NCBI GenBank assembly: GCA_964597355.1
Contig: CAZQWS010000005.1
Location: 903-64,902, forward strand
DNA from: an uncultured Bdellovibrionales bacterium
GTDB taxonomy: Bacteria; Patescibacteriota; Minisyncoccia; Moranbacterales; UBA1568
Direction of reading: 5' to 3'
DNA: 64,000 nt
Below the pieces are notes generated by a model. The model was not told the DNA's origin and searched no databases. It saw nothing but the letters and a program-made list of their open reading frames with translations. This document shows, in pieces, positions 8,668 to 17,667 of the stretch (position 1 is the first letter of the stretch; each line of letters opens with the position of its first letter). A program made the position numbers and the translations under genes.

Positions 8668-10071
8668 ATGCTTAAAAAAGATTTTTTCAAAGGCAAGCGA
8701 GTTACTGTGTTTGGTGTTGGCTTGAATGGAGGAGCTCTCGGTGCAATTGAATTTCTCATCCAGTCGGGCGTTCGGGAGGTAATTGCTACAGATATCCGAA
8801 GTCGAGAAGAACTCGCTCCAACACTCGAAAAGCTCAAGAAATACAAAAATATCGTCTATGTTCTCGGTCAGCACCGACCTGAGGATTTTATGAATGTCGA
8901 CATGGTAGTAAAGACGCCTGGTATTCCATGGACCAACGAGTATGTGAAACGAGCGGTAGAAAAAAAGATTCCTGTGGAGACCGATGCTAGTCTCTTTTTC
9001 CAAATGGTGAAAAATAAGACCATTGCAGTAACGGGAACGCGAGGAAAATCAACGACGGCTTCGCTCATAGCCCATATACTCGAACAATCGGGGAAACCAG
9101 TGGTGCGGGTGGGGATTAATCAAATTGGCTTCTTAAGCGAACTCGGGAAAATAACTCCAGAGAGCATTATTGTCGCAGAACTCTCCTCTTGGCGTCTTTC
9201 TTCACTTCGTAAAATAGAGTGGCGGCCAGATATTTCTGTCGTCACCAATCTCTTTCCTGACCATCAAAACTACTACAAGAGCATGGAAGCGTATGCGAAG
9301 GATAAGCAGGTTATTCTTGAATTTCAGAAAGAGACGGATACTGCGGTACTTAACTTCGATCATGAAGTCGTGCGAAGTTGGGGTGAAAAAGCTTTAGCGA
9401 AACGGTATTTCTTCTCTCAGTCAGGGCAGTCTCTGGAAAACGGCGTGAGTCTTGTAAACGGCGAGGCGGTTGAATACGTTCATGGTGTGATCCAGCCATT
9501 ATGCTCACTCGTGACGCCGTTCTTGGTAGGGGAGCACAATAAAGCCAACGTACTCTCGAGCGTGGCAGCTACGCATGCGCTTGGTATTCCAGGAGAAAAA
9601 ATCCAAAAGGCCCTAGAAACATTCCATGGCCTTCCCCATCGATTTGAGTTCGTAACTACCAAAAATGATATTACCTATATCAATGATACGGCTGCGACTT
9701 CGCCAGATGCATTAGTCGCTGCGCTCAATACTTTGACGACCCCAGCCGTGCTCATTGCTGGTGGAGCTGACAAAAATTTTGATTTCACGAGCCTTGTCCC
9801 GGTCATGTATGAAAAGACAAAGGCCATCATTCTTTTCAAAGGAACCGGAACAGAAAAGTTGTTACCACTCTTGGAAAAGTACGCTAAAGAGAAAGGGGAG
9901 GAGCGCATCTTTCCTGTAGTTGGTTCGATGCGTGATGCTGTCACGGTGGCCGAAGAAAATGCCGAAGCGGGAGATACCATCCTTCTCTCCCCAGGGATGG
10001 CGAGCTTTGGGATCTTCAAGAACGAGTTTGATCGCGGGGAACAATTTCGCCAGGCGGTCAAAGAGATGTAG
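8668..10071 (+). CDS. murD: UDP-N-acetylmuramoylalanine--D-glutamate ligase
   Basis: 'KRVTVFGVGLNGGA', Mur ligase P-loop 'AVTGTRGKSTT', 467 aa. Confidence 0.85.
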   Translation: MLKKDFFKGKRVTVFGVGLNGGALGAIEFLIQSGVREVIATDIRSREELAPTLEKLKKYKNIVYVLGQHRPEDFMNVDMVVKTPGIPWTNEYVKRAVEKKIPVETDASLFFQMVKNKTIAVTGTRGKSTTASLIAHILEQSGKPVVRVGINQIGFLSELGKITPESIIVAELSSWRLSSLRKIEWRPDISVVTNLFPDHQNYYKSMEAYAKDKQVILEFQKETDTAVLNFDHEVVRSWGEKALAKRYFFSQSGQSLENGVSLVNGEAVEYVHGVIQPLCSLVTPFLVGEHNKANVLSSVAATHALGIPGEKIQKALETFHGLPHRFEFVTTKNDITYINDTAATSPDALVAALNTLTTPAVLIAGGADKNFDFTSLVPVMYEKTKAIILFKGTGTEKLLPLLEKYAKEKGEERIFPVVGSMRDAVTVAEENAEAGDTILLSPGMASFGIFKNEFDRGEQFRQAVKEM

Positions 10072-10080
10072 TGTCCATAT

Positions 10081-10109
10081 TTGACTTTTTTATCCAGGAT
10101 GCTAATATA
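10081..10109 (+). promoter_or_regulatory. sigma70-like promoter for the csoR-like gene (-35 TTGACT, 17-nt spacer, -10 TAATAT)
   Basis: TTGACT at 10081-10086 and TAATAT at 10104-10109, 30 nt upstream of the ATG. Confidence 0.5.
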
Positions 10110-10125
10110 CCCATAGAGGGTATAT
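10105..10125. promoter_or_regulatory. CsoR-family operator dyad ATATACCC-N5-GGGTATAT
   Basis: Perfect 8-bp inverted repeat 'atataccc ataga gggtatat' overlapping the -10/TSS immediately upstream of the CsoR/RcnR-family repressor gene; matches the ATACCC..GGGTAT architecture of CsoR-type sites. Confidence 0.6.
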
Positions 10126-10137
10126 TTTTCTTTTCCT

Positions 10138-10386
10138 ATGCCAAATGCAAAAATAACTAATCCTGTCTTTTCCCGCATCGCTCGGATTGAGGGACAGCTT
10201 AAGGGTGTGCGGCGCATGGTTGAGGAAAAGAAAGATTGTCTTCAGGTAATCACGCAGATTCAAGCTATCCGCGAAGCGGTCGCTATGCTTGGGGTAGAGC
10301 TCCTCAAGGATGACATTGCCTGTAAGTGGGATGGCAAGAAGAAGATCGATGAAGGCTATCTCAAATCCTTGTTCAAAATGCAGTAG
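10138..10386 (+). CDS. metal/thiol-sensing transcriptional repressor, CsoR/RcnR/FrmR (DUF156) family
   Basis: 82 aa all-helical protein, conserved Cys in 'EKKDCLQVITQIQAIREA' helix alpha2 and a second Cys 'DIACKW'; no intervening His (two-Cys CstR/FrmR-like variant). Confidence 0.7.
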   Translation: MPNAKITNPVFSRIARIEGQLKGVRRMVEEKKDCLQVITQIQAIREAVAMLGVELLKDDIACKWDGKKKIDEGYLKSLFKMQ

Positions 10387-10420
10387 TTCTTTATTTGTAA
10401 CGTAACTAGTGGAGACGCGT

Positions 10421-11185
10421 ATGAACCAGTACATTCCCAAAGTTGAAGGCCATGTGCTTGTTCTTGGCGGCAGCGGTGGCATCGGTTCGGAAGTCGCTCG
10501 GGCCATGGTAGCTCTTGGAGCGAGTGCGGTGACTTTTACTTATGGAAAGAAGCGGGAAGTTGCTGAAGCCTTGAAACAAGAGTTCGAGTCACAAGGTATC
10601 AAAGTTCATTTTGCCTCGATTAATCGCTCGGATGAGGGCGCGTTCAAGGCGTTCCTTCAAGAAGCCATTACGCTTCAGGGTGGGGAAGTGACTGCCATGG
10701 TGGATGCTATCGGTATTTCACCCAATACTCACCATCTCGAACAGACTATGGATGAGTGGCGCAACGTGATGCAGGTGAATGTGATCGATGCTTTTGTTTC
10801 TACCCGTGCCGTTCTTGAGCGGATGCGGGAGAAAGAAGTGAAGGGTTCGGTTGTTCTCATCACTTCAACCAATGGTGTCAATTCTTGGGCTTCGTACTCG
10901 ATGCATTATGATGCATCCAAGGCGGCACTTGTACCCATGCTCCGTGGTTTTGCTGAAGAGTATGCCAAATACGGCATCCGTATCAATGGCTTGGCACCAG
11001 GTTGGATTGACACAGAAATGAATGTTACGTTGCCTCCAGGGGAAAAAGAAAAGGAAACCGCCAAGATTTGGCTCGGACGTTTCGCGACACCAGCCGAAGT
11101 AGCTTCGATGGCTGCGATCCTCAGCAGTTCGTCTGCTTCGTACATTACCGGTCAAAACATCATGATTGATGGCGGCTATCGGTAA
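10421..11185 (+). CDS. short-chain dehydrogenase/reductase (SDR), 3-oxoacyl-ACP reductase-like
   Basis: 'VLVLGGSGGIGSEVA' Rossmann motif and catalytic 'YDASKAAL' (YxxxK). ORF track starts at GTG 10409; ATG 10421 with GGAG SD preferred. Confidence 0.8.
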   Translation: MNQYIPKVEGHVLVLGGSGGIGSEVARAMVALGASAVTFTYGKKREVAEALKQEFESQGIKVHFASINRSDEGAFKAFLQEAITLQGGEVTAMVDAIGISPNTHHLEQTMDEWRNVMQVNVIDAFVSTRAVLERMREKEVKGSVVLITSTNGVNSWASYSMHYDASKAALVPMLRGFAEEYAKYGIRINGLAPGWIDTEMNVTLPPGEKEKETAKIWLGRFATPAEVASMAAILSSSSASYITGQNIMIDGGYR

Positions 11186-11187
11186 GA

Positions 11188-12195
11188 TTGAGAGAGGGTT
11201 TTGTGGAAGCAAGACCCTCTCAATCATTTTTTGAAACGCTAAATTATTTTTCAAACAACAAATATATGTATGATGTAATCATCATTGGGGGAGGACCTGG
11301 AGGAGTAGCGGCTGGTGTATATACAGCCCGCAAACAAATGAAGACACTTTTTCTCACACAGGATTTTTTAAGTCAGTCGGTAGTATCAGCATCAATCGAA
11401 AACTGGATTGGTACGGTGACGGTGCCAGGCTATGAATTTGGCCAGATGCTTGAGAAGCATCTCCGCGCTCAGGAAAACATTGAGATTAAGACGGGGACGA
11501 AAGCTGCGAAAGTTTCTGAACGTGCCGAAGGTGGGTATGTGGTGGAAACAGAAGTCGGAGAAAAATTTGAAACCAAGACGGTCATCATTGCCTCTGGTGG
11601 ACGGCACCGCCATCTCGAAGTACCGGGTGAAGAAAAATTTGTTGGGAAGGGCGTGGTGTATTGTTCGACCTGTGATGCGCCATTTTTCCGTGACCGCAAA
11701 GTGGCTGTCGTGGGGAGTGGTAATTCGGCTCTTGAAGCGGTAGAAGATCTTATTCCGTACGCTAAAGAGATTGTACTCTTGGTTCGTTCTGGAGAATTAA
11801 AAGGGGACAAGGTTACTCAGGATAATATTTTTACTTCACCAAAAGTAAGCGTGCGTTATCATGTGACTACCCAATCGATTCTTGGTGAAAACAAAGTAGA
11901 GGGGATTGCGCTCATGAACACAGAGACAAATACGCCGGAAGAAATTGCTCTCGATGGTGTGTTCGTGGAAATTGGTATGCTCCCCAATACGGAATTCGTG
12001 AAGGATATAGTAGAGCTCAATGAAGGGGGAGAGATTGTGGTAGACGCACGGACTGCCAGCACCTCGAAGCCTGGTATCTTCGCGACAGGAGATGCGACAG
12101 ACCTTCCCTATAAGCAAAACAATATTTCCGCTGGCGTAGGCGTCACAGCAGCTCTCTCAGCTTATGATTTTATTCGCAAAGGCAAGGCAGAGTAG
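11188..12195 (+). CDS. trxB: thioredoxin-disulfide reductase
   Basis: FAD motif 'YDVIIIGGGPGGVAAGVY', redox-active 'CSTCDAPFF' (CxxC), NADPH motif 'VAVVGSGNSALE'. Probable true start ATG 11266 (MYDVIIIGGG); the 11188 TTG extension is doubtful. Confidence 0.85.
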   Translation: MREGFVEARPSQSFFETLNYFSNNKYMYDVIIIGGGPGGVAAGVYTARKQMKTLFLTQDFLSQSVVSASIENWIGTVTVPGYEFGQMLEKHLRAQENIEIKTGTKAAKVSERAEGGYVVETEVGEKFETKTVIIASGGRHRHLEVPGEEKFVGKGVVYCSTCDAPFFRDRKVAVVGSGNSALEAVEDLIPYAKEIVLLVRSGELKGDKVTQDNIFTSPKVSVRYHVTTQSILGENKVEGIALMNTETNTPEEIALDGVFVEIGMLPNTEFVKDIVELNEGGEIVVDARTASTSKPGIFATGDATDLPYKQNNISAGVGVTAALSAYDFIRKGKAE

Positions 12196-12211
12196 ATTAA
12201 TCGTCTTTACT

Positions 12212-12275
12212 ACTTGGAAGCCGAACTTCCAAGTAAGAATAGATGGTAAAAAGAGGTTTATCCAAGCCTCTTTCT
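12212..12275 (+). terminator. trxB downstream tandem hairpins (9-bp stem acttggaag/cttccaagt; second hairpin agagg..cctct followed by TTTCT)
   Basis: Inverted repeats read directly at 12212-12234 and 12251-12275 followed by a T-rich stretch. Confidence 0.55.
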
Positions 12276-12290
12276 CATGCCACAAATGAC

Positions 12291-12318
12291 TAGACAAAAT
12301 AGCAAAAAAGTGTATAAT
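12291..12318 (+). promoter_or_regulatory. promoter of DGR target gene 1 (-35 TAGACA, 16-nt spacer, extended -10 TGTATAAT)
   Basis: tagaca 12291-12296, tgtataat 12311-12318; homologous copies upstream of target 2 (13361-13389) and of ORF 37494 (37332-37360). Confidence 0.6.
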
Positions 12319-12470
12319 GTACTGTTCGTTAAAAATTCAGAGTTTTGCCAGAGCGAAGAGATTTTTACTTGGAGGCCGGATCCCCAAGAAGACCTCCAAG
12401 AAGGGTAGAGACTTCTTCACTCTGGCAGACTACTCGAATTTTCGAGAGGCCATGAGTAAAAGGAATTGTC
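12319..12470 (+). other. ~150-nt structured 5' leader of DGR target 1 (nested inverted repeats gccagagcgaagag.../...cttcactctggc and cttggaggcc.../gacctccaag)
   Basis: Long imperfect hairpins between the promoter and the AAGGA SD/ATG 12471; a homologous leader core (ccagagcg...cttcttc.ctctgg) occurs at 37386-37432. Confidence 0.5.
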
Positions 12471-13100
12471 ATGACACAGCGTGTCGCCGACGAAGTCATC
12501 TCACGTTTTGCACGTCAACAGCACGATTGGATGGGGCGTGTCCTCAAGGGATCGCTTGATCCAACCGAAGTGGCCCGGGTCGTGCAGGCCATTATCGATC
12601 GTGGTTTACGCTACCCACTGCTTTCGGAAAGGAAGCTCCTCAAGCCCGTCGCCACGGCGACCGCGGCCAAGGATCCGCCCTTCGTGAACGAGTTCTTCCA
12701 GAGCCGTCCCGGCCTCTACGTCTGGGACTCGTTCCGTGAACGCTTCGATCTCAAGGCATTATCCCAGTCGGTGGGCGGCCGTCCCTACGTCGCCTCTCTC
12801 TTGAAGTTGAACGCCTACGATCGTGACATTCGCCGGGAACTGCCGGAGAACAACCTCTCGGCCTTGGAAGACATCGCCGGCTTCATCGAGGCCCAGCCGA
12901 ATGGCAAGGAGGGCTTCCTTCTCACTAACGGTTACGCGAACATCTTCTACGTCGAAGGGCGTAACGGTGAAGTCTTCTCCGTGGATGTTTTCTGGTTCTC
13001 CGACCGCCGCCGGTGGAGCGTCCGCGACTGGAGGCTCGACGAGAATGGCTCGTGGAGTGCTGGCGACCAGGTTCTCTGCCCCGGCAACGCCGCACTCTGA
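12471..13100 (+). CDS. DGR target protein paralog 1 (variable C-terminal domain, VR1)
   Basis: 209 aa, ~60% GC vs ~48% background. Shares 'FQSRPGLYVWDSFRER...PYVASLLK.NAYDRDIRRELPEN.LS.LEDIAGFIEAQP.GK.GFLL.NGYAN.FYVEG.NGE' with the downstream paralog; its C-terminal ~115 nt align to the TR with mostly adenine-site differences. Confidence 0.8.
   Translation: MTQRVADEVISRFARQQHDWMGRVLKGSLDPTEVARVVQAIIDRGLRYPLLSERKLLKPVATATAAKDPPFVNEFFQSRPGLYVWDSFRERFDLKALSQSVGGRPYVASLLKLNAYDRDIRRELPENNLSALEDIAGFIEAQPNGKEGFLLTNGYANIFYVEGRNGEVFSVDVFWFSDRRRWSVRDWRLDENGSWSAGDQVLCPGNAAL
12972..13086 (+). repeat. VR1: variable repeat at the 3' end of target gene 1 (diverged from TR)
   Basis: Aligns codon-for-codon with TR 14504-14620; ~20 differences at TR adenines plus ~12 non-adenine differences. 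Confidence 0.6.
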
Positions 13101-13142
13101 CCCTTCAGTCCATTGGGCAAAGACCCTTGGATACTTAGTCCC

Positions 13143-13193
13143 TTAGACCCTTGGAAACCGCATCGCGGCTACCGGGGGTCTTTTTGTTTTGCT
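13143..13193 (+). repeat. 51-bp element ttagacccttggaaaccgcatcgcggctaccgggggtctttttgttttgct downstream of VR1 (identical copy downstream of VR2); hairpin plus T-run, candidate terminator/IMH-associated structure
   Basis: Exact 51-bp identity between 13143-13193 and 14224-14274; contains ccgc-atc-gcgg hairpin and gaccc/gggtc flanks, then TTTTTGTTTT; preceded by tandem GACCCTTGGA motifs. Confidence 0.6.
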
Positions 13194-13195
13194 CC

Positions 13196-13281
13196 CCTAC
13201 AAGCAGAACAATATTTCAGCCGGTGTAGGTGTGACCGCGGCGTTGTCAGCCTATGACTTTATCCGTAAAGGCAAAGGTTAG
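13196..13281 (+). pseudogene. duplicated 3' fragment of trxB (encodes '..PYKQNNISAGVGVTAALSAYDFIRKGKG*', no start)
   Basis: ~80% nt identity to trxB 12111-12195; followed by duplicated hairpin (13283-13303, compensatory changes preserve stem), terminator hairpin (13318-13346) and promoter. Confidence 0.8.
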
Positions 13282-13360
13282 ATTGGGAAGCCCGGCTTCC
13301 AAGTAAGAAGAGGTAGTAAAAAGAGGCTTGAGTAAGCCTCTTTTTCGTACCCCGTATGAC

Positions 13361-13389
13361 TAGACAAAAGTACCAAAAAGGTGTACAAT
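13361..13389 (+). promoter_or_regulatory. promoter of DGR target gene 2 (-35 TAGACA, 17-nt spacer, -10 TACAAT with upstream TG)
   Basis: Duplicate of the 12291-12318 promoter module. Confidence 0.55.
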
Positions 13390-13463
13390 TATAGGTTGCA
13401 GGTGAGAACTTGCTTCTGCCCCGATTCCCGGCATATGGGAATTACCTTGAAAAGGAGACTGCG

Positions 13464-14168
13464 ATGACGACTCAGTCGATCACGCAAGACCAGGAAAAGC
13501 AACTGAAGCGCTTCCTCGAAGACGCGTCCATAGCGGCGACCCGTTCGGCCCTTGCGCAGGTGTCCCTCGACAAAGAGGGCTCCCAGCAGGTCATCGAACG
13601 GGGCGACCAGCTCAAGGCCGAAATCGAACGCGCCACCGTCGCCATCCTGAAGAAGTTGAGTTCCCGCTATTCGGTCGTCGGTGAAACACGGCTCCTCAAG
13701 CCCGCCGCCGCCTCGACCGCTCGGGCCCGGACTAAGCCGTTCGACCCCTCCGAGTTCTTCCAGAACCGTCCCGGGCTTTACGTCTGGGATTCGTTCCGCG
13801 AGCGGCTCGACATCGAAAACCGCAAGCTCGTTCCGTCGGCTCCCGAACGTCCCTATGTGGCGTCCCTCCTGAAGTCGAATGCCTATGACCGAGACATCCG
13901 CCGGGAATTGCCCGAGAACCATCTCTCGACACTCGAAGACATCGCGGGCTTCATCGAAGCCCAGCCGGAAGGCAAGTCGGGGTTCCTCCTGAACAACGGC
14001 TACGCGAACAACTTCTACGTCGAAGGACACAACGGCGAAATCTTCGCCGTGCGTGTCCTCTGGTACTCGGACAACCTTGAGTGGGACGTCCGCGTTTGGT
14101 TCCTCGATGAGCGTGACTGGTGGCGCGCCGAGCGCCAGGTCGTCTGTCCCGGAAACGTGTCGCTCTGA
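13464..14168 (+). CDS. DGR target protein paralog 2 (variable C-terminal domain, VR2)
   Basis: ATG 13464 with AAGGAG SD (ORF track extends to TTG 13410); 234 aa, GC-rich, paralog of 12471-13100; last ~38 codons are the VR matching the TR. Confidence 0.85.
   Translation: MTTQSITQDQEKQLKRFLEDASIAATRSALAQVSLDKEGSQQVIERGDQLKAEIERATVAILKKLSSRYSVVGETRLLKPAAASTARARTKPFDPSEFFQNRPGLYVWDSFRERLDIENRKLVPSAPERPYVASLLKSNAYDRDIRRELPENHLSTLEDIAGFIEAQPEGKSGFLLNNGYANNFYVEGHNGEIFAVRVLWYSDNLEWDVRVWFLDERDWWRAERQVVCPGNVSL
14040..14153 (+). repeat. VR2: variable repeat at the 3' end of target gene 2
   Basis: 114-nt alignment to TR 14504-14617: 21 substitutions, every one at a TR adenine (aat>cgt, aac>ctc/tac/gac/cgc/ttc, aag>gag, gat>gtt, agg>tgg, cca>ccc), zero at C/G/T positions. 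Confidence 0.9.
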
Positions 14169-14223
14169 CGCTTCGGTCCCTTGGGTCTCTGATTTGTATT
14201 CTGACCCTTGGACCCTCAGTCTC

Positions 14224-14274
14224 TTAGACCCTTGGAAACCGCATCGCGGCTACCGGGGGTCTTTTTGTTTTGCT
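14224..14274 (+). repeat. second copy of the 51-bp post-VR hairpin/T-run element
   Basis: Identical to 13143-13193. Confidence 0.6.
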
Positions 14275-14503
14275 ACAGTAAAAGCGGTATGTTGAAAATC
14301 CCTTCCGGCTACGGCTGGCAGAGCAAGATGCTGGAATGAAAGCGGATGAGAGCCGGAGCAGATACCAACTTCTTCGGGAGAACGCTTTTGTTTCAAAAAA
14401 TATATTGCGTTGGTGTCTTGAGCTTGAGGACTTCGAGGTCCCGCATACGATACAGCTCTGAGAGTAGTCGAGGAGCAGTGGAACGGACGGCTCAAGGCAC
14501 GGA

Positions 14504-14620
14504 ATCTTCGCCGTGAATGTCAACTGGAACTCGGACAACCTTAAGTGGAACGTCAACGATTGGAACCTCGATGAGAATGACAGGTGGAACGCCAAGAACC
14601 AGGTCGTCTGTCCAGGCCAC
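14504..14620 (+). repeat. DGR template repeat (TR)
   Basis: Truncated copy of the target 3' end lacking the N-terminal gene body and start codon; encodes '...IFAVNVNWNSDNLKWNVNDWNLDENDRWNAKNQVVCPG' with 8 AAC + 2 AAT codons exactly at the positions that vary in VR1/VR2. Confidence 0.9.
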
Positions 14621-14638
14621 GCACAAAGTTTCTCTCGC

Positions 14639-14989
14639 CTATTTCGGCGGGAGTTTTGTTTCGAGGCCTTTCTTCCAACCGCCAAGCATCCGGCCTGTTT
14701 CGTTCAACTCCATTGAAAGAGTAGAATACTTCTTGTGATCAATGAGTTTATTTTCCCAACCAAGCTGAAGAAAAAACTTTATGATATCTACCTTTCCGAC
14801 GGTGGCTGTTAAATAGGCTATTTTTTGTTCTGATTTGGTATACTGAGCTCGAAAGATATACTCGAGAGCTTCAAGAAAAATTGCATCTACTTTACCGCCA
14901 AAAGTATAGCGATGGGTTTTGGGAATATGCGGAACACACTGAAGCCACAAATTATATGAAAGTTTTAACTTCTGAACCACTGGCAACAC
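14639..14989 (-). CDS. avd: DGR accessory variability determinant (Avd), four-helix-bundle / 23S rRNA-IVS protein family
   Basis: ~113-116 aa. The pattern 'PKTHRYTFGGKVDAIFLEALEYIF...KIAYLTATVGKVDIIKFFLQLGWE...ETGRMLGGWKKGLE' parallels Bordetella phage Avd ('PRKHGVAREMFLKCLLGQVELF...EVGRILGSWIARVNRK'). Likely start GTG 14980 preceded by AGGTG SD; it lies between TR and RT but on the opposite strand. Confidence 0.7.
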   Translation of the reverse strand: MLPVVQKLKLSYNLWLQCVPHIPKTHRYTFGGKVDAIFLEALEYIFRAQYTKSEQKIAYLTATVGKVDIIKFFLQLGWENKLIDHKKYSTLSMELNETGRMLGGWKKGLETKLPPK

Positions 14990-14993
14990 CTGC

Positions 14994-15002
14994 GGGGGGG
15001 GG
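14994..15002. repeat. G9/C9 homopolymeric tract between divergent avd and RT
   Basis: Nine consecutive G (14994-15002) ~5 nt upstream of the avd SD on the minus strand and inside the open N-terminal extension of the RT frame. Confidence 0.8.
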
Positions 15003-15076
15003 TATTAGAGGCATATCGAAAACGTAAAAAATTAGACATCGCTTACCATGATATCATTTCTCTCGACAACCTCCTC

Positions 15077-16048
15077 TTGGCTTGGCAATCCTTTGTGAAA
15101 GGAAAAAGACAAAAGAAAGACGTTCAGGAATTTGAACTTCATTTGATGGATAACCTGATAGATCTTCGCGAGTCGTTCAAAACCAAAACCTATACCCACG
15201 GTTCCTACCATGCCTTCAAAGTAAATGATCCAAAGCCGAGAGATATTCACAAAGCAAGGGTGAAAGATCGAGTTCTTCATCATCTTCTCTATCAAGCTCT
15301 CTCACTCTTCTTCTTCAAGCGCTTCATTCATGACTCTTATTCTTGCCAGGATGGCAAAGGCATTCACAAGGCTTTACTCAGGTTTGAAACTTTCTCAAGG
15401 AAAGTTTCCAAGAACCATACGAAACAGTGTTTTGTCTTGAAATGCGACATCCGCAAGTTTTTCGCGAGTATTGATCAGGCAATACTTCTCAAGATTCTCG
15501 AAGAGTGGATTGAAGACAAAGAGGTACTGTGGCTTCTCAAAAGAGTGATACAGAGCTTCTGGATCCCGGATCACCCGCCCGAACGTACCAGTTCGGTACG
15601 GGCGGGAGTCCGGGATGACACAAAGAGAGGATTACCCCTGGGCAATCTGACATCCCAGCTTCTGGTGAATATCTATCTGAATGAGTTTGACCAGTTTGTG
15701 AAGCATGTTCTTAAAGTACGGCATTATATCCGGTATGCCGATGACTTTGTAATCCTCTCGCACGACAAGAGTGAACTTCAAACACTACTTATCAAGCTTC
15801 AAACCTTTCTCAAGTTGAGGCTTAATCTTGACCTTCACCCGAACAAAGTCTCAATAGAGACTCTTGGAAGTGGAGTAGACTTCTTGGGTTGGGTGCATTT
15901 TCCTGATCACAGAGTATTACGAACGGTAACGAAGCGGAGGATGATGAAGAAGGTGAATCCGAAGAATATTGCTTCGTACTTGGGAATGCTTGATTGGGGA
16001 AATGGGTGGAAATTAAAACAATTGATAGAAGATTTGTTTGACTTCTAG
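15077..16048 (+). CDS. DGR reverse transcriptase
   Basis: RT motifs: 'LLAWQSFVKGKRQKKDVQEF' (DGR RT N-terminus), 'PKPRDIHKARVKDRVLHHLLY', motif 4 'LPLGNLTSQLLVNIYL' (DGR-specific [LIV]GxxxSQ) and motif 5 'RYADDFVIL' (YxDD). The frame stays open upstream to 14969 with RT-like residues ('LEAYRKRKKLDIAYHDIISLDNLLL') but no in-frame ATG/GTG; TTG 15077 is the track start. Confidence 0.9.
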   Translation: MAWQSFVKGKRQKKDVQEFELHLMDNLIDLRESFKTKTYTHGSYHAFKVNDPKPRDIHKARVKDRVLHHLLYQALSLFFFKRFIHDSYSCQDGKGIHKALLRFETFSRKVSKNHTKQCFVLKCDIRKFFASIDQAILLKILEEWIEDKEVLWLLKRVIQSFWIPDHPPERTSSVRAGVRDDTKRGLPLGNLTSQLLVNIYLNEFDQFVKHVLKVRHYIRYADDFVILSHDKSELQTLLIKLQTFLKLRLNLDLHPNKVSIETLGSGVDFLGWVHFPDHRVLRTVTKRRMMKKVNPKNIASYLGMLDWGNGWKLKQLIEDLFDF

Positions 16049-16082
16049 GTAAAAAGCTGCTATACTGGTAGAGTAAATGAAG

Positions 16083-16110
16083 AAACGGGTGAATGCCCGT
16101 TTTCTTTTTT
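16083..16110 (+). terminator. rho-independent terminator after RT (aaacggg-tgaatg-cccgttt + TTTCTTTTTT)
   Basis: 7-bp GC-containing stem and T-run read directly. Confidence 0.7.
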
Positions 16111-16136
16111 ACAAGAGGAAATCCTCTTACAAATAC

Positions 16137-16195
16137 ACCACCACACCAATAGTGCCTTGAGTAAAGAGTATTTAGGGCTTTATTGGTGTGGTGGT
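16137..16195. other. perfect 15-bp stem-loop (accaccacaccaata ... tattggtgtggtggt, 29-nt loop) within a ~250-bp structured intergenic region
   Basis: Exact reverse complement arms; followed by further hairpins (ggcgaaagcc, ctggga..tcccag, gccgctt..aagcggc) up to 16330; no recognised ncRNA family motif. Confidence 0.4.
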
Positions 16196-16395
16196 ACATA
16201 GTAGTTAAAAGGCGAAAGCCTCCTATTCTGGGACAGGGTTCCCTCTCCCAGCGAGCAGTGCCAATTAAACGGTCCTGCCGCCACCAACAGTCTGCCGCTT
16301 CGGTCCATTGTGATCTAAGCGGCTTTGAATTTCCCCCTTGTCTTAGGTAATTTTTCAGCTTGAAAAAGAGGGTGTTTTGGGCTATACTCCCCCTT

Positions 16396-17667
16396 ATGGA
16401 AGTATTTGAAATTGAGGGCGGAAAACGCCTTGCTGGTACCATTGCCGTAGCTGGACTAAAGAATGCCGCTACGCCGATTATCGCGGCGACTTTATTGTCA
16501 CGTGAACCATCAATTTTGGAAAACATCCCTCGGATTGAGGATGTGTTTCGCATGCTTGAAATCGTGGAGAGTCTCGGAGCGACCGTAGAATGGGTAGGTG
16601 GGCAGACAGTAAAGATCACCCCGACGGATATTGACCCGAGTCACATGGATCAGGAAAAGGTAAAACGCCTGCGTTCCTCGATTCTCCTCTTGGGGGCACT
16701 CTCTGCCCAATTTGATAATTTTGAACTCTGTCAACCTGGTGGCTGTGTTATCGGTACTCGACCAGTAGAAGCGCACCTTGATGCCTTGATGAAGTTTGGG
16801 GTGAAAGTGGAACAAAAAGAAAAAGGCTATGTGATCGATGCGAGCGAACGACATGCAGCCAAAGTTGTTCTTCGTCAAATGTCAGTAACCGCCACCGAGA
16901 ATGCGATGCTGCTGGCAGCACGCTTGCCAGGTGATACCATGATCAAGATTGCCGCTTGTGAACCGCATGTGGTTGATCTGGGCCGTTTCCTGGAAAAAAT
17001 GGGAGTGGAGATTGATGGACTGGGTACGCATACGCTTACCATTCGTGGGAAGAAAGAGCTGCATGGAGCAACGCATGCGATCATGCCTGACCACAATGAA
17101 GCGGCGACCTACCTTATTTTGGGAGCAGCTACAGAGAGTGAGATTACGGTAGAAAACGCCCGTGAAGATGATCTTGATCTCGTACTAGAAAAACTCCGTG
17201 AGCTTGGTGTCTCGTTCACGATTACCCCTAATGCTATTACTATTCATCCAACCGATCACCTCAATGCCCCATCGCTCTTCATCGACCCACGTCCGTATCC
17301 AGGTATCCCAACTGATATCCAGGCACCCCTTGCTGTGCTTGCAACCCAAGCCGAAGGAGAAACACTTATTTTTGATACGCTTTACGAAGGCCGTTTTAAT
17401 TACGCTGTGGAATTAGAAAAAATGGGAGCAAAGCTTTCTGTGCTCAATCCTCATCAGGTGGTGGTGCATGGCAAGACACTTTTGCGTGGTACGGTGATCA
17501 AAAGTTATGACCTGCGTGCTGGGGCAGCCCTCATCATTGCTGCGCTGACTGCTCAAGGGAAAACAGTGATCGAAGATATCTATCAAGTAGACCGTGGCTA
17601 TGAGCGAATCGAAGAACGACTGCAGAAGATTGGCGCAAATATCAAAAGAGTAGGGCGCGGGGAATAG
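16396..17667 (+). CDS. murA: UDP-N-acetylglucosamine 1-carboxyvinyltransferase
   Basis: 'MEVFEIEGGKRLAGTIAVAGLKNAATPIIAATLL' and EPSP-synthase-like fold motifs ('PGGCVIGTRPV', 'YDLRAGAALIIAAL'). ATG 16396 preferred over TTG 16360. Confidence 0.85.
   Translation: MEVFEIEGGKRLAGTIAVAGLKNAATPIIAATLLSREPSILENIPRIEDVFRMLEIVESLGATVEWVGGQTVKITPTDIDPSHMDQEKVKRLRSSILLLGALSAQFDNFELCQPGGCVIGTRPVEAHLDALMKFGVKVEQKEKGYVIDASERHAAKVVLRQMSVTATENAMLLAARLPGDTMIKIAACEPHVVDLGRFLEKMGVEIDGLGTHTLTIRGKKELHGATHAIMPDHNEAATYLILGAATESEITVENAREDDLDLVLEKLRELGVSFTITPNAITIHPTDHLNAPSLFIDPRPYPGIPTDIQAPLAVLATQAEGETLIFDTLYEGRFNYAVELEKMGAKLSVLNPHQVVVHGKTLLRGTVIKSYDLRAGAALIIAALTAQGKTVIEDIYQVDRGYERIEERLQKIGANIKRVGRGE

Follow-up and report, generated by a model that had tools for sequence, protein, structure and literature searches.

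The stretch of DNA analysed here (the window; 64,000 nt of contig CAZQWS010000005.1) carries a template repeat (TR) and a variable repeat (VR2). The two very probably belong to a chromosomal diversity-generating retroelement (DGR), in which the first serves as template and the second is the repeat that is actively varied. The host genome is Moranbacteria-like, and the element has the layout typical of the candidate phyla radiation (CPR), in which the TR is followed by avd and the reverse transcriptase (RT) gene, TR-(avd)-RT. The components of the locus are listed in Table 1. A repeat search revealed three copies of a segment of approximately 120 nt, at 12968, 14036, and 14500, corresponding to VR1 of target gene 1, VR2 of target gene 2, and the TR, respectively; no other copy was found on either strand of the 64-kb window. 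Because the target genes, the TR, Avd, and an RT resembling bRT of the Bordetella phage element are all present, the DGR is considered to be complete.

Table 1 Features of the DGR locus and its surroundings (positions refer to the window; ORF, open reading frame; TRF, Tandem Repeats Finder; IMH, initiation of mutagenic homing).
Feature	Position	Strand	Remarks
trxB	11188-12195	+	neighbour upstream of target gene 1
Promoter-like site of target gene 1	12291-12318	+	equivalent to that of target gene 2; consensus match only
Target gene 1	12471-13100	+	ORF, 209 aa; paralogue of target gene 2; VR1 C-terminal
VR1, variable repeat of target gene 1	12971-13084	+	not written by the TR of the window
8-nt periodic repeats after target gene 1	13121-13152	+	AGACCCTT-like; GACCCTTR; TRF
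Terminator of target gene 1	stem 13146-13180; repeat and terminator 13121-13192	+	stem, then T-run; predicted by folding
Duplicated trxB 3' end	13192-13274	+	matches 12103-12185, 80% (repeat families D3-D6)
Promoter-like site of target gene 2	13361-13389	+	TAGACA-17-TACAAT; consensus match only
Target gene 2	13464-14168	+	ORF, 234 aa from ATG 13464; open from TTG 13410
VR2, variable repeat of target gene 2	14039-14152	+	probably overwritten from the TR; all 21 mismatches fall on TR adenines
VR-specific 3' flank, IMH-like boundary	14153-14168	+	..AAACGTGTCGCTCTGA; match of TR and VR at non-adenine positions ends; putative function
8-nt periodic repeats after target gene 2	14203-14233	+	GACCCTTR; TRF
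Terminator of target gene 2	stem 14227-14261; repeat and terminator 14203-14273	+	stem, then T-run; predicted by folding
Extended -10 promoter of the TR-containing RNA (putative)	14271-14279	+	TGCTACAGT; directly after the terminator of target gene 2
Structured 5' domain of the TR RNA, about 200 nt	14301-14499	+	RNAalifold; helices P1-P5
P1	14301-10/14313-22	+
P2	14353-62/14367-77	+
P3	14414-24/14489-99	+	long-range; encloses P4 and P5
P4	14428-31/14438-41	+
P5	14455-62/14469-76	+
TR, template repeat	14503-14616	+	34 adenines; invariant; repeat search and ungapped comparison
8-bp hairpin and T-run	14632-14662	+	16 nt past the TR; overlaps the stop codon of antisense avd
avd	14639-14989	-	116 aa; PF22296; opposite strand to TR and RT
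Reverse transcriptase	14969-16048	+	RVT_1, 86 bits; frame open from 14969
G9 homopolymer	14994-15002	+	between avd start and RT N-terminus; preceded by CTG 14990

The TR and VR2 were compared without gaps at a fixed offset of 464 nt over 114 nt. Mismatches were observed at 21 positions, every one at a TR adenine, with eight changes to G, seven to C, and six to T, and none of the 80 non-adenine positions differed. Given that 34 of the 114 nt of the TR are adenines, a restriction of all 21 mismatches to them has a hypergeometric probability of 2.2e-14. The asymmetry was directional, with the TR retaining its adenines and VR2 having only 13 of them. Most of the TR adenines (32/34) and of the changes (20/21) were at codon positions 1 or 2, and the 37 codons of the TR included eight AAC and two AAT. 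If all 34 adenines were used, approximately 10^18.7 protein variants would theoretically be possible. These results agree well with an earlier note on this DNA, made from the letters alone, which had claimed 21 substitutions, all at TR adenines and none at C, G, or T. Its 14 codon changes were exact and sum to the same 21 substitutions, its codon count was reproduced, and the per-base classification that it had proposed showed no spread of the mismatches over the four TR bases. The pair of intervals that it gave (14504-14617 and 14040-14153) designated the right repeats, but the homology begins one base earlier, at 14503, and the last base of the intervals is already a non-adenine mismatch (C14617 in the TR against A14153 in VR2). 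The match is bounded by the first non-adenine mismatches at 14502 and 14617, and VR2 ends 16 nt before the stop codon of target gene 2.

At the 3' side of the repeats, the last adenine-templated site was 14614 in the TR and 14150 in VR2. Beyond this site, GG is common to the three copies and is followed by CC in the TR, AA in VR2, and CA in VR1; a common ACG then precedes full divergence. Non-adenine differences between the TR and VR2 begin at 14617/14153, and the boundary is sharp at 14616/14617. Furthermore, seven of the eight closest TRs read CAC where the targets read AAC (Pro-Gly-Asn). Because adenine mutagenesis cannot turn a TR cytosine into a VR adenine, this difference would mark the edge of the transferred tract. 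The 3' boundary fits the concept of IMH and IMH*, as the earlier note had supposed. That note had also described the segment shared by VR1 and VR2 as absent from the TR; the boundary is real, but the segment is not absent, since GG and ACG are common to all copies.

Natural alleles of VR2 were found in other assemblies, a search that the earlier note had proposed. A 96% identical relative of the target protein (P0001) is encoded on a 1,111-nt contig (L001) of run SRR33452761. This contig is the same as positions 13164-14274 of the window save 12 bases. Each of these lies in VR2 at a site where the TR has an adenine; the flanks of both alleles agree at 100%. A contig of a third run, SRR8893623 (L088), carries the VR2 allele of the window exactly. 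In a fourth assembly (run SRR11524805), contig L087 starts at the TR (position 14506 of the window) and is 99.93% identical over 4.5 kb, with three mismatches and no gaps over 4,543 bp. The flanks and the TR are fixed and VR2 varies at adenine-templated sites, which is the pattern of a working DGR. Judged from these sequences, the element apparently is active, or was so very recently, on VR2 only. An exact-pattern scan of JGI metagenome contigs, in which the adenine positions of VR2 were wild-carded, gave no match. Short-read assemblies of the lineage break exactly at the TR (L087) and at the duplicated trxB fragment (L001 and L088, position 13164 of the window); VR alleles therefore land on orphan contigs of approximately 1.1 kb.

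The avd and RT genes lie directly downstream of the TR. Avd matched PF22296 bAvd with 53 bits, which was above the cut-off of 40, and had no sequence match in PDB. The best solved relative of the RT was 8ub7_A (E, 2.9e-38), and group II intron RTs followed with 1.6e-14. The motif LGNLTSQ of the RT, which is of the IGxxxSQ type, aligns with IGSLTSQ of bRT (I181-Q187). The residues I181, G182, and Q187 have been named for bRT of the Bordetella phage (10.1101/2023.10.23.563531), and they are present in 8ub7_A. These alignments indicate that the RT is bRT-like and of the DGR lineage. Its frame is intact over 359 codons with every conserved motif kept, and the N-terminus is conserved with its homologues. 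A run of 7-11 G occurs at the junction of avd and RT in 29 of 31 loci and its length varies among the loci, the exceptions being L064, which has a TC repeat, and L052, which has G5. The run could be a ribosome-binding or an expression-switch element. The possibility that it reflects an assembly frameshift in the RT was rejected, as the independent contig L087 contains an identical G9, and as the shift of frame with respect to L006 occurs past the run.

The two target genes were compared with each other and with their relatives. The products are 59% identical, and that of target gene 2 consists of an N-terminal helical part and a C-terminal variable domain of 150 aa. Nothing from Pfam or NCBIfam matched either protein, and neither recognisable domains nor membrane signals were found in them. 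Relatives of the target protein numbered 137, all in assemblies of the Candidatus Moranbacteria type and none with a Pfam domain. The genes form a tandem duplication of approximately 1,070 bp that carried the 3' end of trxB along; this duplication would have made the second target gene, and the trxB copy marks it.

The two variable repeats appear to have different histories. VR1 differed from the TR of the window at 21 adenines and at 15 non-adenine positions, 11 of which were third codon positions. Against the TRs of the related genomes L007, L008, L009, and L030, VR1 showed only 3-5 non-adenine mismatches, whereas VR2 showed 13-23. The orthologue of VR1 in a 92%-identical relative (L002) differed at 18 of the 34 TR-adenine positions, but at only 7 of the 80 other VR positions and at 1.2% of the positions outside the VR. 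Because of these comparisons, VR1 is considered to have diversified since the split from the L002 lineage, through a TR belonging to the common type but absent from the window. VR1 was probably written by a different or ancestral TR, either a second or a lost one, and not by that of the window. The TR and VR2 of the window seem to have co-diverged from the common TR type, as expected under repeated overwriting of VR2. Accordingly worded, the DGR proposed in the earlier note stands, with RT and Avd directly downstream of the TR and a VR2 allele varying only at TR adenines, but VR1 is not a second target of this TR. L002 itself was rejected as the carrier of the TR for VR1; it lacks RT, avd, and TR, and only a remnant of the RNA domain described below was found in it (10848-10954). 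L002 is rearranged in a different manner (9067-11556), with a 100% identical 300-nt repeat, a trxB fragment, and a 291-aa ORF replacing target 2, TR, avd, and RT; the 100% internal repeat may be an assembly artefact.

A conserved RNA structure was found upstream of the TR. With MAFFT, 33 loci were aligned over a region that begins 230 nt before the TR and ends 110 nt after it; the alignment, which was not fitted to the structure, showed strong conservation upstream of the TR. In the predicted 5' domain, 93.4% of the cells were paired, compared with 40-45% in controls in which the 3' partners were slid by 1-3 columns, and the covariation score was 0.708, compared with 0.12-0.18 in these controls. 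Pairs altered on both sides were observed for 34 of the 39 pairs, and none of 500 shuffles matched the observed values. The + strand is taken as the RNA because many G-U pairs are conserved. The conserved single strands were GTTGGTG and GCATACGATAC. With a covariance model of P3-P5, each DGR locus gave exactly one match, always on the + strand and immediately before the TR, and the window has a single copy; the matches included loci outside model building and the decayed elements L042, L043, and L002. In total, the domain was conserved in approximately 40 DGR loci, and a search of Rfam (E <= 1) with positions 12000-16400 of the window gave no match. From this comparative evidence, the existence and the conservation of the RNA structure are well supported. 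Upstream of P1, a TAnnnT hexamer at a distance of 17-21 nt was present in 29 of the 33 loci, and TGnTAnnnT in 25. This conserved extended -10 element suggests that the TR RNA is a transcription unit of its own.

On the 3' side of the TR, seven of the eight pairs of the hairpin covaried across 30 loci. The hairpin resembles a terminator; it could also, or instead, be the counterpart of the Avd-binding stem-loop described next to the TR of the Bordetella phage element (10.1101/2023.10.23.563531). A conserved UUGGU (14410-14414) could pair with several conserved ACCAR sites, two of which are 14598-14602, in the 3' end of the TR, and 14681-14685, and so might form a duplex across the TR like the 'cPRT Stop' of BPP-1-type RNA; both sides are near-invariant and showed no covariation. 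In the Bordetella phage element, the essential RNA consists of the TR with 20 nt in front of it and a 140-nt spacer behind it, and conservation was surveyed there only within 40 nt before and 100 nt after the TR, across Bacillota, Cyanobacteriota, and Pseudomonadota (10.1101/2023.10.23.563531). A structured 3' spacer like that of the Bordetella phage BPP-1, which carries the priming adenosine and the elements bound by RT and Avd, was not found at the locus, where the TR is followed only by the 8-bp hairpin and T-run and then by the antisense avd coding sequence. By analogy, we infer that the 5' domain may replace the BPP-1 spacer.

Each target gene is followed by 3-6 copies of an 8-nt motif between its stop codon and its terminator, and the repeat copy after target gene 2 (14203-14285) is 90% identical to that after target gene 1. 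The core CYYTTDG was enriched approximately 20-fold in the 100 nt past the target stop codons of 75 loci. The repeats follow VRs, those of orphan targets included, but not TRs, and they could hence help to tell the recipient from the donor, or could be a feature of the 3' untranslated region.

One genome per species was scanned with the target alignment, which gave 80 loci, followed by tblastn with the RT, Avd, and target of the window. Approximately 35 loci shared the layout of target (+), a gap of approximately 450 nt, avd (-), and RT (+); they belonged to Moranbacteria, Paceibacteria, Kaiser-, Giovannoni-, Berkel-, and Jorgensenbacteria, and others. In nearly all of them, the gap held a TR of 105-125 nt, with 16-55 nt between its end and the avd stop; its differences from the VR were confined almost entirely to adenines. 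As the TR search scored adenine mismatches leniently, only the near-absence of non-adenine mismatches is informative here. For approximately half of the target homologues, no RT lay within 4 kb. The closest target and RT homologues, as well as syntenic contigs, are labelled Candidatus Moranbacteria or Moraniibacteriota; by these labels, the host is of the CPR/Patescibacteria type and Moranbacteria-like. Decayed DGRs that keep the RNA domain and the TR were observed in L042 (4647-5162) and L043 (4795-5402); L042 retains only a C-terminal fragment of avd, and L043 only a C-terminal fragment of RT.

Several observations weigh against a working DGR of this kind. The RT frame has no ATG, GTG, or TTG upstream of the conserved N-terminus (at approximately 15044), with none before 15077, and the ATG that lies upstream, at 14955, belongs to a different frame, which is closed by a stop (MKVLTSEPLATPAGGGIRGISKT, then stop). 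Avd reached 73.1 bits on NF033474 DivGenRetAVD, slightly below the cut-off of 80. At the 3' boundary in the window, there was neither a GC-rich IMH 14-mer nor an obvious cruciform as in BPP-1. In addition, the VR2 alleles of L001 and the window share 14 identical non-adenine substitutions, which are interspersed among the 12 differences and take in all five sites at the 3' end. Two independent homing events over the full length should share far fewer, and the shared substitutions point to partial or patchy conversion, or to selection.

The absence of a canonical RT start between 14969 and 15077 would suit a fossil, namely an element whose TR/VR2 pattern records past activity and which is now inactive through loss of the RT start codon, and the clearly decayed L042 and L043, which keep RNA and TR, show that such remnants exist. 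However, the RT frame has remained intact with all of its motifs, and the zero non-adenine mismatches in 80 positions together with the 100% identical flanks of the alleles speak for very recent rewriting. Moreover, at least five other loci with an intact RT likewise lack a canonical start codon. In the closest relatives, CTG immediately precedes the G-run and one homologue begins with MRGG, whereas in more distant loci the RT ATG lies 5-20 nt past the run. The shared lack of a canonical start and the CTG suggest unusual initiation rather than decay, and CTG at 14990 is a possible start of the RT. A fossil is thus regarded as unlikely. We consider it still less probable that VR2 is rewritten in trans by a DGR elsewhere in the genome while the local RT and Avd serve another target. 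The many related target genes without a nearby RT, and the evident dependence of VR1 on a TR outside the window, are in line with such an arrangement, but only the adjacent TR fits VR2 without non-adenine mismatches, the TRs of related genomes leaving 13-23, and the adjacent target-TR-(avd)-RT is a conserved unit in the approximately 35 loci. A third possibility, that the three paralogous repeats simply diverged or underwent gene conversion and owe their adenine bias to chance or composition, might be considered because the region is a tandem duplication and VR1 is mismatched with the TR at all four bases. This explanation is extremely improbable in view of the restriction to adenines (P = 2e-14), the directional asymmetry between the TR and VR2, the adjacency of RT and Avd, and the allele differences at TR-adenine positions only.

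The fold of the variable domain was also modelled. In a first AlphaFold2 run with the full-length target and 83 close homologues, the variable domain had a predicted local distance difference test score (pLDDT) of 57 and was unusable, and the run was replaced by one with the C-terminal domain. A profile search with diverse relatives gave 913 members of the target family, and the model of the C-terminal 150 residues, based on an alignment of 92 sequences, had a pLDDT of 86.6 and a predicted template modelling score of 0.85. The structures listed for this C-terminal-domain model were sulfatase-modifying factor 2, EgtB, OvoA, PvdO, many C-type-lectin-like domains, invasin, and intimin. Foldseek of the target model against PDB gave no meaningful match, and a profile search of the target against PDB sequences gave only noise. 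DGR variable proteins having a C-type-lectin fold with which the target may be compared are Mtd, TvpA (2y3c), and the archaeal and Thermus variable proteins. On the basis of the model, the variable domain of the target is best described as a distant C-type-lectin-like fold of unproven membership.

By analogy with the Bordetella phage DGR, the preferred reading of the locus as a DGR acting on VR2 would proceed as follows. A separate non-coding RNA of approximately 375 nt would be made from the promoter directly after the terminator of target gene 2; it would comprise the structured 5' domain, the TR, and the hairpin with its T-run, and would end near 14662. RT and Avd would then copy the TR part into complementary DNA with random bases opposite adenines, and this copy would replace VR2 in target gene 2, with its 3' limit where TR and VR differ (from 14617/14153). 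As a consequence, up to 21 codons on the C-type-lectin-like binding domain would be recoded (approximately 10^18.7 protein variants). A joint reading of all the cis elements is more tentative, and we regard it as rather doubtful in its entirety: the template of the CPR-type (B3) DGRs would be a discrete RNA of this size, transcribed from an extended -10 promoter of its own and closed by a terminator-like hairpin, the large protein-binding or priming domain would lie 5' of the TR, permuted relative to the 3' spacer of Bordetella, the 8-nt repeats downstream of every VR would perhaps act as IMH or cruciform, and the G7-11 tract would perhaps control the expression of RT and Avd.

The architecture TR-(avd)-RT, named B3, with avd inverted between TR and RT, accounts for 90% of a CPR DGR set and is nearly absent elsewhere; the VR classes of CPR were left there as "unknown VRs" (Wu et al. 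2018, PMC5758913). CPR DGRs were assigned to the cellular clade 2, with targets that have no recognisable domains and are perhaps new C-type-lectin variants (Roux et al. 2021, PMC8144416). The locus agrees with these elements in the inverted avd between TR and RT, the CPR-type host, the cellular context, the targets without domains, and the VR at the extreme C-terminus of the target. Nothing essential was different; the lineage of the window has a tandem-duplicated target, only one copy of which matches the TR. The locus very probably belongs to a well-described kind of DGR, and what may be new is the set of cis elements found across the clade, above all the covarying 5' RNA. The portions covered of the literature on CPR DGRs (PMC5758913, PMC8144416) contained no mention of the 5' structured RNA, the G-run, or the 8-nt repeats.

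In comparison with the prototype BPP-1 (mtd-avd-TR-brt), the window shares the adenine-specific differences between TR and VR, a TR rich in AAY, Avd, a bRT-like RT with a motif of the IGxxxSQ type, the VR at the 3' end of the target, a 3' boundary set off by TR/VR differences, and a stem-loop closely following the TR. In contrast to BPP-1, avd of the window comes after the TR and is encoded on the other strand, and the hairpin with T-run followed by antisense avd stands where BPP-1 has its 140-nt structured spacer. The position of the large, conserved RNA structure on the 5' side of the TR, where it has a promoter to itself, the lack of the GC-rich 14-bp IMH and of an obvious cruciform, the chromosomal location, and a target that is not a phage tail fibre are further differences.

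As a DGR, the locus adds little, since the enrichment in CPR is known and the gene layout is the published norm. Its value lies in being a clean and apparently live example, with zero non-adenine mismatches and two natural alleles in different samples, and in being an entry point to a family of approximately 35 loci whose non-protein parts (RNA, promoter, terminator, G-run, and repeats) can be read by comparison. If these cis elements were the equivalents of the spacer RNA and the IMH of Bordetella, the organisation of the mechanism in the largest DGR reservoir in nature would become visible, and reconstitution experiments would gain defined parts to work with. It has been guessed in the literature that the CPR targets whose fold is unknown are remote variants of the C-type lectin, and the target model lends support to this view.

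The neighbouring genes are the housekeeping genes murD, trxB, murA, and mreB, which indicates a cellular, non-phage context. Other clusters of CYYTTDG in the window (45798, 600, 24602, and 62735) were rejected as 8-nt arrays, being loose matches inside coding sequence. The G+C content was approximately 60% for the target genes and approximately 58-64% for these with the TR (12450-14400), approximately 40% for avd and RT with a range of approximately 39-48% (14700-16050), and approximately 47% for the neighbourhood.

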